From the sequence record MN850611.1: a stretch of 64,000 nucleotides of DNA. One strand, 5' to 3'. The stretch is from Escherichia phage nataliec. A program made the position numbers and the translations under genes. The notes below the pieces were generated by a model. That model was not told the origin of the DNA and searched no databases. It saw only the letters and a list, made by a program, of their open reading frames with translations. Positions 35,465-63,662 of this stretch are shown here, piece after piece (positions within the stretch are counted from its first letter, which is position 1; each line of letters opens with the position of its first letter).

Positions 35465-36568
35465 TTATTCGTAGTCTCGAATAACTAACCCAACAGGGAA
35501 CTGTAAAGACCCCTTACGAGTCATCTTCTGGAACTGAACCGTTAAAGGCTTCCCGATAAACTCTTCAGGATGCTCAGCAAGATACTGTTTCTTCTCATGA
35601 GTAGTCTTCCATGAGACATCTACAAAGACATTAGGGAGAGTCTCTACAACGAACTTTCCATGACCACGTTTATCGGTCTTGACACCAGTCACTTTAAACT
35701 CTTCAGTGTGCATCTTCTTATGCTTAATCAAGAAGTATGAACGGTGACCACACTCGTAGAAAGATTCTTCAGAGATTGAGCGGTACATTGCACCTTCAAA
35801 CTTAGCTTCAACCCACTTATCATGAGCTTCATCAAACTCTTCCCAAGAATTTACACGACGAGATTTAACAGGAACAACTTTACAACCGTCTCTAAAGTCA
35901 TTCAATGGTGAAGTCTCAATAATATCTCTACGCTCAGGCCACGTCTTAGTGCTGTCACAGATATCGTACCAGTAAAACTTGAGTAAATGTCGGTCAGGAT
36001 TGTCTTCATTTTTAATCATGGAGACAATATCTTCTAAGTCCTGCCCATGAGCATAGATTTCACCATCAAACTCATCAACATCTTTGTGGAGCCTCAACAT
36101 TGCCATAATGTCAGGTATTAGTTCAGTAGGGATTTTATAAACAGTATTCTCACGAGAGTATGCTGTAAATACACTACTGATGCTCAAGTGTCTTGAAATT
36201 CTACAACGTACACCATCCAGTTTCGGTTGAGCATCAGCAGGGAACTTCAGGTACTTTGCATGGCTAACCTTTGCAGCATCATGAGCAAGCTGTACACCAA
36301 CTTTCTCAGTATTCTGTGCAGACTCTTTTGTGTAAGCATAACCTTTACGGTCAACTTGCTTTTTATACTTAGCAGCAACTTCAAAGAGAGCTTGCTGTTC
36401 AGCATTACGCTCATTCTTTTTACCGATGTTTTTAGCTTCTGCTGTATACTCTTCAAACATCATCTTGCCATTTTCTTTACCGTAGGTTGTAATAACTTTG
36501 TCACCTACAGCAACACATGACCAGACGTTAAAAGAGCCGTCTTTATTTTGTTTGTACAGAATTGTCAT
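35465..36568 (-). CDS. ATP-dependent DNA ligase
   Basis: adenylation motif I 'KLDGVRC', 'FDGEIY', 'EGAMYRS', 'KHKK'; ~90-aa N-terminal extension. Confidence 0.7.
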   Translation of the reverse strand: MTILYKQNKDGSFNVWSCVAVGDKVITTYGKENGKMMFEEYTAEAKNIGKKNERNAEQQALFEVAAKYKKQVDRKGYAYTKESAQNTEKVGVQLAHDAAKVSHAKYLKFPADAQPKLDGVRCRISRHLSISSVFTAYSRENTVYKIPTELIPDIMAMLRLHKDVDEFDGEIYAHGQDLEDIVSMIKNEDNPDRHLLKFYWYDICDSTKTWPERRDIIETSPLNDFRDGCKVVPVKSRRVNSWEEFDEAHDKWVEAKFEGAMYRSISEESFYECGHRSYFLIKHKKMHTEEFKVTGVKTDKRGHGKFVVETLPNVFVDVSWKTTHEKKQYLAEHPEEFIGKPLTVQFQKMTRKGSLQFPVGLVIRDYE

Positions 36569-59557: not shown

Positions 59558-59569
59558 ACAGATACTATA

Positions 59570-59595
59570 AGGGAACCTTTACAGTTCCCTTTTTA
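59570..59595 (+). terminator. Rho-independent terminator
   Basis: gggaac...gttccc + TTTTT. Confidence 0.55.
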
Positions 59596-59608: not shown

Positions 59609-60124
59609 ATGTATCTGTCAAACCTAAAACGTTCTGCTGCAATGTCAGTGTTAAGACTTAGCTTTGAGGAACGTCAAGAGTTCATTGACTCCCACCAATA
59701 CGACCCCTCAAACTCCAATCACATGATTCTCTGGAATCGTGAAAGTACTCGTGAAAGAGTACTATTCCGTTATTACCCACACTACACTATAGATAACCTG
59801 TATGAATGTTTTGTTGTGAAGAACACCATTGCAGTGCTCAATAAGCTTTGTAGATACACAGGTAGTCAATCCTTCACATTAGGCCACCACAAACCTGTTA
59901 CAAAGGGTGGTGAGCATCACTGTGCAAACTGGTTTATCCAGACTAAACTTGATAACCAGAAGCAGGGAGATAACCTTCTAAGCACACCTAAGATGACCTA
60001 TGAAGAGCAAGAGAAATATATCAAAAATAATATGCCAGATGTGCTTGACAACAACTATACAGATTTGGCAATATCTCTCCTGTTGAAGTTCGAGACAGTT
60101 TATAGGGCAACTTACAATGGCTAA
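59609..60124 (+). CDS. HNH-like nuclease (putative)
   Basis: 'LGHHKPVTKGGEHHCANWFIQTKLDNQKQGD' resembles HNH core (HH..GG..N). Confidence 0.4.
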   Translation: MYLSNLKRSAAMSVLRLSFEERQEFIDSHQYDPSNSNHMILWNRESTRERVLFRYYPHYTIDNLYECFVVKNTIAVLNKLCRYTGSQSFTLGHHKPVTKGGEHHCANWFIQTKLDNQKQGDNLLSTPKMTYEEQEKYIKNNMPDVLDNNYTDLAISLLLKFETVYRATYNG

Positions 60125-60395
60125 AGAGAAGTGGGAGATTTTACCATTAGTCAGTGAAGGCGGTAATGGTTGTGAAATGTACATGATACGTGGGCATGTT
60201 CCAGAACCAATTGCACTTGAGATGGTAAACAACTTTACAGATGGCTCTTACAAAGACTTAGGGGAGCCAAATATAAAGCAGCAATGGGTAAAGCCTGTAC
60301 CAGACAGCACAGGTAGCTGTAGTGTACTTTATCACGTTGTAGACCCTGCAAAATGCAAATCTGCAATGGCAGTAACAAACGTAACTTTTGATTGA
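60117..60395 (+). CDS. hypothetical protein
   Basis: track ORF. Confidence 0.4.
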   Translation: MAKEKWEILPLVSEGGNGCEMYMIRGHVPEPIALEMVNNFTDGSYKDLGEPNIKQQWVKPVPDSTGSCSVLYHVVDPAKCKSAMAVTNVTFD

Positions 60396-61288
60396 GAGAG
60401 AAAACTATGAAAACTGTTATTGAAGCCGTTGTCACCGCTCAAGAGAAATTCTTCCACACAGAAAAATTTAATATCATTCAATTCCCATCTGGAGAAATTG
60501 GTGGAAACTTCTCTGAAGATTTTGTTAAGTTTACTGAGCGTAATGCTGGTAAGATTGATAATGTTATAATTACTGTACAGGGATATGACAAAGATACACT
60601 GTTTGCATTAGCTTTGGCTAAGGATGCCGTTGACAGTCTTGTTCCCCAGAAATCAGCGATGAAAACCGTTGTTTTCGGGTTCTTACCAAATGCTCGATAT
60701 GACCGCCACATGTTCAAAGGTGATGCAGCAGCACTGAAAGTCTTTGCCAACCTAGTTAATGCAATGGGTTTTGATGCAGTATGTGCTCTTGACCCTCACA
60801 GTAATGTTGCAGAAAACTTATTTAAGTGCTTTCAAAGCATGAAGCAAAAAGATGTGGCAGTACACTTTGCAAGTGACCCACGCATTGATTTCTTGGTAGC
60901 CCCAGATGCAGGTGCAGCTAAGAAGACTGAAGATACCGCTAAAGAGGTGGATAAACCGTATATCACAATGTCTAAGGTGCGCAATCTTAAGACTGGAGAA
61001 ATCACTGGTATGCGAATCCTTGACGATGTTGATTTGACCGATAAAACTGTCATGATTCTTGATGATATCTGTGATGGTGGTCGAACCTTCGTAGAGGCAG
61101 CTAAACACCTACGTGAAGCAGGTGCAAAACGTGTGGAACTCTATGTAACTCATGGTATTTTCTCTAAAGGTGTTGAAAACTTACTTGACAACGGTATTGA
61201 CCATATCTACACTACAAACACTTTAGGTGAAGCTAAAGACCGTGGCTTAACACATTACGCCCAAGTTACTGTAGCAACCATTGATTGA
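60392..61288 (+). CDS. ribose-phosphate pyrophosphokinase-like enzyme (Prs-like; possibly ADP-ribose pyrophosphokinase of an NAD-reconstitution pathway)
   Basis: type I PRTase PRPP-binding motif 'VMILDDICDGGRTF'; ~300 aa; adjacent to Nampt-like gene. Confidence 0.65.
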   Translation: MREKTMKTVIEAVVTAQEKFFHTEKFNIIQFPSGEIGGNFSEDFVKFTERNAGKIDNVIITVQGYDKDTLFALALAKDAVDSLVPQKSAMKTVVFGFLPNARYDRHMFKGDAAALKVFANLVNAMGFDAVCALDPHSNVAENLFKCFQSMKQKDVAVHFASDPRIDFLVAPDAGAAKKTEDTAKEVDKPYITMSKVRNLKTGEITGMRILDDVDLTDKTVMILDDICDGGRTFVEAAKHLREAGAKRVELYVTHGIFSKGVENLLDNGIDHIYTTNTLGEAKDRGLTHYAQVTVATID

Positions 61289-61296
61289 AACTTTAT

Positions 61297-61318
61297 AGGG
61301 GCTTGAAAGCCCCATTTT
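61297..61318 (+). terminator. terminator-like hairpin between Prs-like and Nampt-like genes
   Basis: ggggct-tgaa-agcccc + ATTTTG (weak T run). Confidence 0.4.
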
Positions 61319-61333
61319 GAGAGAGATTAAAAG

Positions 61334-63115
61334 ATGACTAAATCGCTTTACGCAGTACCAGCAGGTTTAAACGCAGATGCTTACAAATCTGGTCATGTTT
61401 ACCAGTACCCTAGTGCAACAGAATACTTGATGTTCAACCTGACACCACGTAGTGACAAATGGTTTAACAGCCCCTTAGCAATTGATGGTGTAGTAGCTTT
61501 TGGTATTCAACGTTTCGTTAAAGATTACCTGATAGACCACTGGAACGCCACTTTCTTTGAACGTGATAAAAAAGAAGCAGTTGACGAAATCTTAGAAGTC
61601 ATGAATGGTGTTCTGGGTAAAGATGCTATCGGTCGAGAGCATTGGGAAGCACTTCACGATTTAGGCTATCTACCAGTTGAAGTATACGCTGTAGAAGAAG
61701 GTACAGTTGTTCCTATGCGTGTTCCAATGATTGTCTTCCAGAACACTGTTTCAGGTTTCCATTGGGTAGCAGGTTATCTGGAAGATGCTTTCTCTGCTGA
61801 GATTTGGAAGACTTGCACCATTGCAACTATTGCATTGCACTACAAACGTATCTGTAAGAAGTGGACTGACCTTACTTGCGACAATGAATTACATTTACCT
61901 TATCAGTGCCATGACTTTGCTATGCGTGGTATGTCCGGCTTTACCGATGACGCATTTAATGCTGTAGGTCACTTAACCAGCTTTAAAGGAACTGATAGCT
62001 TCCCTGCTGTATACACGGCTAAACGCATCTATGGACAGTCTTACCCAATTTCTGATATTGGTAGTTCTGTACCAGCCACTGAACACTCTGTAATGTGTGC
62101 AAACATTGCTTGGGAAGGTGGTAATGAATTGATTGAAGAGGAAAGACGCTTTAAAGGTGAGTTGCAAACCTTCCGTCGTTTCTTAACAGAAACTTACCCA
62201 ACTGGTATTGCAAGTATTGTTTCAGATACTTATAACTTCTGGAGAACTGTGTCAGAAATCTTACCAGCACTTCGTAAAGAAATTATGGAACGTGATGGTA
62301 AGCTGGTAATTCGCCCTGACTCTGGAGACCCTGTACATATTGTCACAGGCTATAAAGCAATCCACTTAGAGTGTGCTAAGAAGGCTTATTACGAACACTT
62401 AAGCAAGCTTGAAGCCAGCGACACAATGTTGAATGCTGTTCTGAACATGAAGCTTGAAAACATCAATTATGGTATTGCTGGATGGCTACTGTCAGAAGGC
62501 TACGAAATGGTTGTTGACAGAGAAGACTTTGAAGTTGCTGATACAGTGCTGTTGAAAAACGCTTATATGGTTGGTTCTGCAAACGTTGTAACACGTCCTG
62601 TAGCTGAGATTGATGGAGCTATTAAGACACTGTACAACATCTTTGGGGGAACTATTAACTCTAAAGGGTTTAAGGTACTGGATGAGCATATCGGACTTAT
62701 CTATGGTGACTCTATCACGCTGGAACGTGCAAACGAAATCCTGAAGCGTCTGTATGAAATGGGTTTTGCAAGCTCTAACGTAGTGTTTGGCGTAGGTTCT
62801 TACACTTACCAGTACATGACTCGTGACACCTTTGCATTTGCTGTCAAAGCAACTCTTGCAAGCATTGGTGGTAAAGAGATTATGCTTGCAAAAGACCCTA
62901 AAACAGATAGTGGTGTTAAGAAATCTGCCTTTGGTGGTGTAGCACCTATGTGGGATGGTGACAAGCTGAAAGCTATAGATGGCTATGGATTCCAGAGTTT
63001 TGCAGATGTACTTGACCACCCAGCTTGTGCCTTACGTTTAGTCTTTAGTGACTCTGAGCAGTTCGGTTACACAACTCTTGGGGATATTCGAAATAATATT
63101 GACAAGCAGCTTTAA
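61334..63115 (+). CDS. nicotinamide phosphoribosyltransferase-like enzyme (NadV/Nampt family; possibly Namat-type)
   Basis: N-terminal 'DAYKSGH' motif, ~590 aa typical of Nampt family. Confidence 0.7.
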   Translation: MTKSLYAVPAGLNADAYKSGHVYQYPSATEYLMFNLTPRSDKWFNSPLAIDGVVAFGIQRFVKDYLIDHWNATFFERDKKEAVDEILEVMNGVLGKDAIGREHWEALHDLGYLPVEVYAVEEGTVVPMRVPMIVFQNTVSGFHWVAGYLEDAFSAEIWKTCTIATIALHYKRICKKWTDLTCDNELHLPYQCHDFAMRGMSGFTDDAFNAVGHLTSFKGTDSFPAVYTAKRIYGQSYPISDIGSSVPATEHSVMCANIAWEGGNELIEEERRFKGELQTFRRFLTETYPTGIASIVSDTYNFWRTVSEILPALRKEIMERDGKLVIRPDSGDPVHIVTGYKAIHLECAKKAYYEHLSKLEASDTMLNAVLNMKLENINYGIAGWLLSEGYEMVVDREDFEVADTVLLKNAYMVGSANVVTRPVAEIDGAIKTLYNIFGGTINSKGFKVLDEHIGLIYGDSITLERANEILKRLYEMGFASSNVVFGVGSYTYQYMTRDTFAFAVKATLASIGGKEIMLAKDPKTDSGVKKSAFGGVAPMWDGDKLKAIDGYGFQSFADVLDHPACALRLVFSDSEQFGYTTLGDIRNNIDKQL

Positions 63116-63128
63116 AAGTATATGATAA

Positions 63129-63151
63129 GAGGCTCCTACGGGAGCCTTTTT
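63129..63151 (+). terminator. Rho-independent terminator
   Basis: ggctcc-tacg-ggagcc + TTTTT. Confidence 0.6.
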
Positions 63152-63168
63152 AATTTCTGGAGAAAACT

Positions 63169-63504
63169 ATGAAAATCAAAGAGATGAACATCAACATTGT
63201 CTTAGAAGAACGTTGGGAGAACATCAAGAAGCCTGAAGATGGTCATAAGTTCCTTAACAAAATCTTGGTAGCAGCTAAAGAAGAACTGACTGGAAAGGTT
63301 GCAGCAGCAATCACAATAAAGGTTTGTGTAAAAGGTCTTCCACAACATCACCAGTTTGCACTTGACGAGTTTAAAGAAAGCTTCTACAATCCAAACAAAC
63401 AGATGCTTGAAAGTAACTTTGCAGTATCTACAAGTATCGTTCATGACAGAAGCTTTATCCTTTACAAAAATATGAGAGGTGAGTCATGCAAGCATATTGG
63501 ATAG
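63169..63504 (+). CDS. hypothetical protein
   Basis: track ORF. Confidence 0.4.
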   Translation: MKIKEMNINIVLEERWENIKKPEDGHKFLNKILVAAKEELTGKVAAAITIKVCVKGLPQHHQFALDEFKESFYNPNKQMLESNFAVSTSIVHDRSFILYKNMRGESCKHIG

Positions 63505-63662
63505 AAATTTTACTGTCACTTGGTAGTGTAGCAGTATTTGTTTACCTCCTTTGTAAGTACTTTGCAGAGCACAAAAAATGTGACTACTGTAATGGAGAGG
63601 GGTACATAAGGGCAGGATGTTGCCCTATGTGTGGTGGTTCTGGTAAAATGTTTAATAAGTAA
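63486..63662 (+). CDS. small membrane-anchored zinc-finger protein (58 aa)
   Basis: N-terminal hydrophobic helix then 'CDYCNGEG...CPMCGGSG' double CxxC; not in ORF track (below 60 aa). Confidence 0.35.
   Translation: MQAYWIEILLSLGSVAVFVYLLCKYFAEHKKCDYCNGEGYIRAGCCPMCGGSGKMFNK

Follow-up and report, generated by a model that had tools for sequence, protein, structure and literature searches.

Close to the end of a 64,000-nucleotide stretch of DNA from Escherichia phage nataliec (MN850611.1; the whole stretch is referred to as the window), two adjacent genes encode proteins resembling ribose-phosphate pyrophosphokinase (Prs) and nicotinamide phosphoribosyltransferase (Nampt), and the question raised by this locus is whether the pair carries out canonical NAD+ salvage or rebuilds NAD+ from ADP-ribose (ADPR) after its depletion by host immunity. 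The open reading frames (ORFs) are found in the ORF list at the coordinates and on the strand given in an earlier, sequence-only reading of the window, ORF 1 at 60392-61288 (+; 298 residues when counted from a TTG codon) and ORF 2 at 61334-63115 (+; 593 residues), and both are real and intact. The motifs cited in that reading were located in the proteins, MILDDICDGGRTF at residue 221 in the TTG frame of ORF 1 (216 when counted from ATG) and, in the ORF 2 protein, DAYKSGH at residue 15, and the assignment to Prs-like and Nampt-like families is borne out by profile matches. ORF 1 matches PF00156 and PF14572 of the ribose-phosphate diphosphokinase superfamily, the ribose-phosphate diphosphokinase subfamily model TIGR01251 (138.8 bits against a cut-off of 113; E = 1.7e-40) and phrog_619 (E = 2e-99); ORF 2 matches PF04095 and PF18127 of the Nampt/NAPRTase family, NF006629 (468 bits, E = 2.4e-140, passing the cut-off of 405) and phrog_448 (E = 1.5e-201). 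Both family assignments are far above chance. For the first gene, the most probable start codon is not the TTG at 60392 but the ATG at 60407, 15 nt downstream, so that its product (60407-61288, +) has 293 residues; the ATG is preferred because it is the annotated start in the phages Bas63 and humlepung and because a Shine-Dalgarno-like motif, GAGAGAGA, precedes the ATG codons of both genes at equal spacing.

The pair is best interpreted as an anti-defence operon of Felixounavirus for NAD+ reconstitution pathway 1 (NARP1), orthologous to genes 79-80 of Bas63 (JohannRWettstein) and encoding an ADP-ribose pyrophosphokinase (Adps, from the PRPS-like ORF 1) and a nicotinamide ADP-ribose transferase (Namat, from the Nampt-like ORF 2), an interpretation to which a probability of about 0.93 is assigned. 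For this exact sequence, function is read throughout from orthology and conserved determinants, the in vivo data being those for Bas63 and the in vitro data those for distant homologs. Adps is identical to Bas63 gp79 at 291 of 293 positions (99.3%) and Namat to gp80 at 583 of 593 (98.3%). The 23 nucleotide differences in adps lead to 2 amino acid changes and the 61 in namat to 10, the majority being synonymous in each gene, and none of the 12 substitutions is at a mapped functional residue. Gene order and the 45-nt spacer are the same as in Bas63, and the context is syntenic from NrdD/NrdG through rIIA. Namat is found nearby for 97% of genes of the Adps clade, and here adps and namat lie on one strand, separated by that 45-nt gap. 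The sequence-only reading had left open whether the pair was Prs with NadV or Adps with Namat; these identities, with the residue determinants described below, decide this in favor of the second alternative. An operon of this kind is already known, having been published from the same phage genus, and for each of the two enzyme types structures have followed.

NARP1 was discovered in Bas63 genes 79-80 by Osterman et al. in 2024 (10.1101/2024.02.11.579819). Their Δ79-80 mutant plated about 20-fold less efficiently on SIR2-HerA cells, NAD+ depletion on SIR2-HerA was milder with wild-type Bas63 than with the mutant, and ADP-ribose pyrophosphate (ADPR-PP, m/z 720.010) was detected only when wild-type phage met SIR2-HerA (10.1101/2024.02.11.579819). 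The proposal that the pair counters NAD+-depleting defence thus finds support through the Bas63 orthologs, in which deletion sensitizes the phage to SIR2-HerA and the intermediate appears only with the defence. Type I Thoeris, DSR1, DSR2, and SEFIR are all neutralized by the pathway, whereas type II Thoeris is not; an anti-defence effect in vivo has been shown for the Bas63, FADO, and SPbetaL1 operons, and Adps activity in vitro, the conversion of ADPR and ATP to ADPR-PP, for SPbetaL1, ICP1, and DyoEdafos.

The same data bear on canonical salvage, in which a true Prs would provide phosphoribosyl pyrophosphate (PRPP), a true Nampt/NadV would form nicotinamide mononucleotide (NMN), and host NadR/PncC would complete NAD+ synthesis. 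Both proteins do match the Prs and Nampt/NAPRTase families, and all annotated Felixounavirus records give them Prs and Nampt names, but rescue by the near-identical Bas63 proteins is independent of host pncC and nadR (10.1101/2024.02.11.579819) and the metabolite is ADPR-PP; NMN is ruled out as the Bas63 product because neither host gene is needed. In addition, SPbetaL1 Adps is active on ADPR with ATP but gave no product in a ribose-5-phosphate assay, and SPbetaL1 Namat forms NAD+ from ADPR-PP and nicotinamide (10.1101/2024.02.11.579819). In vitro, the latter enzyme does still convert PRPP and nicotinamide to NMN, about half as actively as human Nampt (PMC12774641), and residual PRPP activity of this type may give Namat a minor secondary role in salvage, which would not be its main role. 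The aromatic adenine clamp of the window Namat, absent from true Nampts, and the lack of the Prs C-terminal module in the window Adps, which falls below all Prs equivalog cut-offs, both argue further against salvage, which is regarded as extremely improbable.

The mechanism proposed for the NARP1 operon would begin with cleavage of NAD+ to ADPR and nicotinamide by host effectors of the SIR2, TIR, or SEFIR type. By the action of Adps, the distal ribose of ADPR would then receive the β-γ pyrophosphate from ATP, giving ADPR-PP and AMP, with Lys190 as the predicted catalytic lysine and a loop, DDICDGGRT, predicted to grip the donor phosphates. Namat would exchange the pyrophosphate of ADPR-PP for nicotinamide and so make NAD+ directly, using a conserved Nampt catalytic core of Asp15, Tyr17, Phe195, Arg198, Asp221, His251, Arg327, and Asp329 and a predicted adenine clamp, composed of Lys42/Trp43, Tyr490, Tyr494, Thr496, and Asp498, that would favor ADPR-PP over PRPP. 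The phage would in this way regain NAD+ and replicate in hosts with NAD-depleting defences.

Determinants in Adps were examined in an alignment of the window protein with the Adps of ICP1, SPbetaL1, and FADO and with E. coli Prs (b1207). In the structures of ICP1 Adps, determined by crystallography and cryo-EM (September 2026), ADPR occupies the conserved acceptor groove of PRPS, with its adenine gripped by Phe18 of the neighboring protomer, Arg87, and Phe92; the PP loop and a β-hairpin are remodeled for ATP, the PP loop gripping the β-γ pyrophosphate, and Lys185 is essential, the K185A substitution abolishing activity (PMC13586617). All six of the position-conserved ICP1 residues (Arg87, His121, Asp161, Asp212, Asp213, and Asp216) are kept in the window protein, as Arg97, His131, Asp167, Asp219, Asp220, and Asp223, but these acceptor-groove residues are also common to Prs and mark the scaffold rather than specificity. 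The predicted catalytic Lys190 (codon 60974-60976, +) lies in the β-hairpin MSKVRNLKTGEI and aligns with ICP1 Lys185 and with SPbetaL1 Lys162, the residue mutated by Osterman et al. (10.1101/2024.02.11.579819). The hairpin motif KxR[ND]xxTG[ED]I is present in all four Adps sequences (window, ICP1, SPbetaL1, and FADO), whereas E. coli Prs has DKRRPRANVS.

The PP-loop region comprises residues 219-228, DDICDGGRTF (61061-61090, +), in which DDICDG is identical to ICP1 Asp212-Gly217 and the lid residue Phe228 corresponds to ICP1 Phe221. The loop described in the sequence-only reading as a PRPP-binding loop typical of Prs is present, but in Adps it binds the donor phosphates of ATP (PMC13586617), and the Thr of the Prs DTGGT motif is absent from the same four Adps. 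Within this loop, CDGGRT of the window protein corresponds to CDGAAS (Cys215-Ser220) of ICP1, with Thr for Ser at its end, and the Adps of Bacillus phages have SSFGGT, so the sequence rule is a loose one. Phe26, Ile221, Cys222, Gly224, and Phe228 are also kept, as is the adenine-contact residue Arg97. ICP1 Adps lacks the C-terminal α11-α12 module and the allosteric sites of PRPS, and loss of the module is a family-defining signature (PMC13586617). As judged from the C-terminal length relative to E. coli Prs, the module is missing from the window Adps: the conserved Asp265 is followed by 28 residues, compared with 23 in ICP1, 34 in both SPbetaL1 and FADO, and 48 in E. coli Prs.

Profile comparison, which had been suggested as a way of telling Adps from Prs and Namat from Nampt, was informative on the Adps side, where the specific Prs cut-offs are missed by wide margins (NF002095, 113.8 against 296 bits; NF002320, 101 against 297; NF002844, 81 against 438) and, of the NCBIfam Prs models, the protein passes only the broad subfamily model TIGR01251; it was not so for Namat, which passes NF006629, a model that does not separate Namat from Nampt. 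In pairwise comparisons, the window Adps scores 120 bits with ICP1 Adps (37% identity), 95 bits with SPbetaL1 Adps (32%), and 66 bits with E. coli Prs, and pairwise BLAST was rejected as sole discriminator between Adps and Prs as being too weak. Because these scores discriminate only modestly, the Adps call depends mainly on orthology with gp79, adjacency to Namat, and structural features.

For Namat, the structures of the SPbetaL1 enzyme (9W5W/9W5X, 2026) have revealed a Nampt-like catalytic core together with an adenine selectivity clamp (PMC12774641), and it is with this enzyme that the window protein gives the highest score among its PDB sequence matches (431 bits, compared with 352 for H. 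ducreyi NadV, 180 for Xanthomonas (Xcc) Nampt, and 143 for human Nampt). An AlphaFold2 model of the window Namat built with 51 homologs (predicted local distance difference test (pLDDT) 93.8; predicted template modeling score (pTM) 0.91) likewise has 9W5X as its best fold match (E = 1.9e-54; template modeling score 0.95 on the target). Of the SPbetaL1 ligand contacts, 16 of 20 are identical, among them Asp15, Tyr17, Phe195, Arg198, Asp221, Ala248, Arg327, Asp329, Gly458, Gly488, Ser489, and Arg497, and the rest are replaced as F392→Y490, R40→K42 (with W43), S190→A196, and A362→S460. His251 is invariant in the 51 homologs.

The two elements of the clamp can both be recognized in the window protein. 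According to the published rule, the selectivity-clamp loop (SCL) has either Arg at position 3 or Lys/Tyr followed by a stacking residue, and where Lys occupies the SCL position the next residue stacks on the adenine, Bas63 Namat being the example (PMC12774641). The SCL of the window Namat, residues 38-50 PRSDKWFNSPLAI (61445-61483, +), has Lys42-Trp43, with Lys42 aligned to SPbetaL1 Arg40; this is the arrangement published for Bas63 Namat, and stacking of Trp43 on the adenine is predicted. The selectivity-clamp helix (SCH), residues 488-498 (62795-62827, +), has the sequence GSYTYQYMTRD, in agreement with the published Namat signature, with its aromatic residues at Tyr490 and Tyr494 and Met at φ3, where Asn or Val is usual. 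True Nampts lack aromatic residues in the equivalent segment, GAQTYQRNTRD in H. ducreyi NadV (9KE8) and GGALLQKVDRD in Xcc Nampt, the counterparts of Tyr490/Tyr494 being Gln/Arg and Ala/Lys, respectively. The full SCH signature is found in 45 of the 51 homologs in the alignment, including chromosomal copies of about 496 residues from Enterobacteriaceae, and in the remaining six position 7 is Met.

Several observations weigh against the assignment of the pair to NARP1. Protection by the operon is only partial in Bas63, and Bas63 Adps purified poorly, for which reason SPbetaL1 homologs were used in vitro (10.1101/2024.02.11.579819); SPbetaL1 Adps, the enzyme of this biochemistry, is only 32% identical to the window Adps, and no in vitro activity is on record for the Felixounavirus enzymes themselves. 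Adps is separated from Prs only weakly by the pairwise scores (95-120 versus 66 bits), two adenine contacts of the ICP1 enzyme are changed (F92→M102 and F223→E230), and its PP loop has GGR in place of GAA (A218-A219→G225-R226); it should be noted that the position of ICP1 Phe92 is a gap in SPbetaL1 and FADO Adps. The window Namat has two insertions that are absent from the crystallized SPbetaL1 enzyme, the latter retains, as stated above, an NMN-forming activity with PRPP, and a kinetic preference for ADPR-PP over PRPP has been shown for SPbetaL1 Namat only.

The distribution of the locus bears on a further possibility. The region 60000-63600 is 99.2% identical in DNA sequence to Escherichia phage humlepung (Felixounavirus), with whose record the window is not perfectly collinear, and many other Felixounavirus genomes are 94-98% identical to the region; 258 phage records match it, at least 80% of it being covered in 230 of these. 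The surrounding genes follow a Felix O1-type map: NrdD/NrdG precede the pair, rIIA comes after it, and there are also structural genes and a tRNA array. The presence of the pair in essentially all Felixounavirus records, whatever the defences of the host, would be expected if NARP1 chemistry were kept mainly for general NAD+ homeostasis, through ADPR recycling or through Nampt activity of Namat with host PRPP, rather than for anti-defence. Related Adps/Namat pairs in the Klebsiella core chromosome beside an NrtR-type regulator, and the housekeeping roles in bacteria suggested by Osterman et al. (10.1101/2024.02.11.579819), are in keeping with such a function. However, ADPR-PP was undetected in Bas63-infected cells that lacked SIR2-HerA, which points to little substrate flux when there is no NADase, and the DNA ligase of the phage is ATP-dependent, so that no NAD demand arises from ligase. 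An NAD-dependent DNA ligase was accordingly rejected as a cause of NAD+ demand, the ligase ORF (35465-36568, −) matching PF01068 and an OB domain. A mainly homeostatic role is considered very unlikely, and the anti-defence function of the NARP1 operon is preferred.

The larger of the Namat insertions consists of about 85 residues (approximately 340-428; 62351-62617, +), and the second, of about 15 residues (approximately 258-272; WEGGNELIEEERRFK; 62105-62149, +), comes after ATEHS, the motif of the catalytic His. Searches of Pfam, the PDB, and BFVD gave no match to the larger insertion, which is detectable by sequence only in 253 records of Ounavirinae type; homologs of 590-610 residues retain it even where identity is as low as about 25%, and GYE(M/L)(V/I)V recurs in it as a motif. 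It is predicted to be a compact α/β domain whether modeled within Namat or by itself (pLDDT 90.6 and pTM 0.78 by itself), and the models thus confidently predict that it is autonomous. Across 51 Namat homologs, the loop at the larger site ranges from 18 to 101 residues and that at the smaller site from 8 to 46, and because their length is so variable both loops are insertion hot spots; the larger could reflect repeated lineage-specific elaboration.

The insertion domain leaves the core after the strand carrying Arg327 and Asp329 and rejoins it before the strand with Gly458-Asp459-Ser460, a topology that would place it on the catalytic face. It is compatible with function because Bas63 has the same domain and the Bas63 operon works in vivo. 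The domain is not discussed in the cited NARP1 papers. It seems rather doubtful that it adds, beyond decoration, a function missing from the crystallized SPbetaL1 Namat; possible roles of this kind are docking of Namat on the Adps hexamer, which would channel the hydrolysis-prone ADPR-PP, and gating or regulation of the entrance to the active site on the adenine side. The domain represents a gap between the Namat validated in vivo (Bas63 type) and the Namat that has been crystallized (SPbetaL1 type).

The spacer between adps and namat contains a GC-rich hairpin, GGGGCUUGAAAGCCCC (61298-61313, +), followed by AUUUUG; the 48-nt intergenic stretch has a folding energy of −12.6 kcal/mol (z = −2.9). 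Bas63 has this hairpin unchanged, despite differing flanks. Its role could be that of a partial terminator or of an element for RNA stability by which the Adps:Namat ratio is set. An intrinsic-terminator-like hairpin with a 10-bp stem and a T-run follows namat (63127-63150, +; −16.6 kcal/mol, z = −3.5) and is kept in Bas63. Together with the previous strong terminator-like site, at 59569-59591, it brackets a block of four genes, inside which there is a weaker, 5-pair terminator-like match at 60304-60320. The other two genes of the block are small ORFs of 171 residues (phrog_3500) and 92 residues (phrog_4726), which lie between the upstream terminator-like site and adps (59609-60395, +) and may be co-transcribed with adps-namat. 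Neither has an informative Pfam match, the 171-residue ORF giving a weak HNH-like match. They were considered as additional NARP1 components and dropped: the 92-residue ORF is restricted to Ounavirinae, and the 171-residue ORF occurs also in Erwinia phages and in coliphages of about 150 kb, with no obvious linkage to NARP1. The top sigma-70-like match of the region (63099-63126; TTGACA-16 nt-TATGAT, 11/12) overlaps the final codons of namat and stands directly before the terminator hairpin, an odd order of promoter then terminator.

Two records named for phages of other hosts, Staphylococcus phage SA1 (GU169904) and Campylobacter phage A126, contain the region at 95-98% identity; they appear to be contaminated or wrongly assigned, and not the product of cross-phylum transfer.

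In every annotated Felixounavirus record found, the pair is still named ribose-phosphate pyrophosphokinase and nicotinamide (or nicotinate) phosphoribosyltransferase, and Prs/Nampt names are likewise kept by NCBIfam NF006629 ("nicotinate phosphoribosyltransferase") and by PHROGs 619 and 448. Because a Namat scores above the cut-off of an NCBIfam equivalog model, NARP1 genes will continue to be mislabeled by automated pipelines; a few sequence rules, based on the aromatic residues of the SCH, the hairpin motif of Adps, and its shortened C terminus, allow such pairs to be re-annotated as anti-defence genes. Felixounaviruses are widely used in therapy and biocontrol of E. coli and Salmonella, and NARP1 predicts resistance of these phages to defences of the SIR2, TIR, and SEFIR types.

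A related chromosomal locus is found in Klebsiella michiganensis (L008:3211-6491), where, in a core-genome context, genes for a 289-residue Prs-like protein and a 496-residue protein with the Namat signature, GSFTYQYNTRD, are divergent from that of an NrtR-type (Nudix + WHD_NrtR) regulator. With 47% identity (160 bits), the Prs-like protein is nearer to the window Adps than is any of the validated Adps from phages. Since ADPR is the signal sensed by NrtR regulators, the locus classically described as NrtR-prs-nadV may represent a bacterial NARP1 whose own substrate induces it. No explicit link between NrtR and NARP1 was found in the literature, in which Osterman et al. hint at a housekeeping NARP1 in bacteria.

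Among known systems, canonical Prs (E. coli b1207) and Nampt/NadV (human, Xanthomonas, and H. ducreyi 9KE8) belong to the same superfamilies as the pair and share its folds and core catalytic residues. Prs differs from the window Adps in having the DTGGT loop, the DKRRPRAN flexible loop, and C-terminal filament/regulatory helices, and in acting on ribose-5-phosphate instead of ADPR; Nampt differs from Namat in the lack of aromatic residues in its SCH equivalent and in using PRPP rather than ADPR-PP as donor. Two other pathways serve the same purpose as NARP1. NARP2 (NadV and NatV of KVP40) proceeds through NMN with an NMN adenylyltransferase (NMNAT), and was rejected here: the partner gene is Prs-like, no NMNAT or Nudix match was obtained in the flanking ORFs, and the part of humlepung equivalent to the window (7258-73000 of that record) has no such annotation. 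NARP3, consisting of the PnuC-like and NadR-like proteins of Bas30, imports nicotinamide riboside (PMC13464706); it too was rejected, there being no PnuC-like or NadR-like domain in the pair and none beside it or annotated in the closest genome. RyDEP, a RyR-domain glycosidase inserted in some mycobacteriophage NARP1 loci, was rejected in the absence of such a partner gene.

Of the NARP1 components characterized in other phages, ICP1 Adps is PRPS-like and shares with the window Adps the hairpin lysine, DDICDG, the acceptor groove, and the lack of the α11-α12 module, but at 37% identity the N-terminal 60 or so residues are poorly aligned. The NARP1 of SPbetaL1 is likewise built of two genes and agrees with the window in the catalytic core of Namat, with an SCH of GSFTYQYNTRD compared with GSYTYQYMTRD in the window; identity is 46.5% over aligned positions for Namat and 32% for Adps. 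SPbetaL1 Namat, of 491 residues, uses Arg40 directly in the SCL, whereas the window protein has Lys42 and then Trp43, and it is without the insertions of about 85 and 15 residues. Bas63 differs from the window in a 345-bp ORF, bas63_0081, situated between the namat terminator and the next gene and lacking from both the window (about 63116-63168) and humlepung; the length difference of about 350 bp in the two-piece match to Bas63 arises because this ORF is present only in Bas63. With Bas63, a member of the same genus, the window has in common its gene order, spacer, intergenic hairpin, terminator, and Namat insertion domain.

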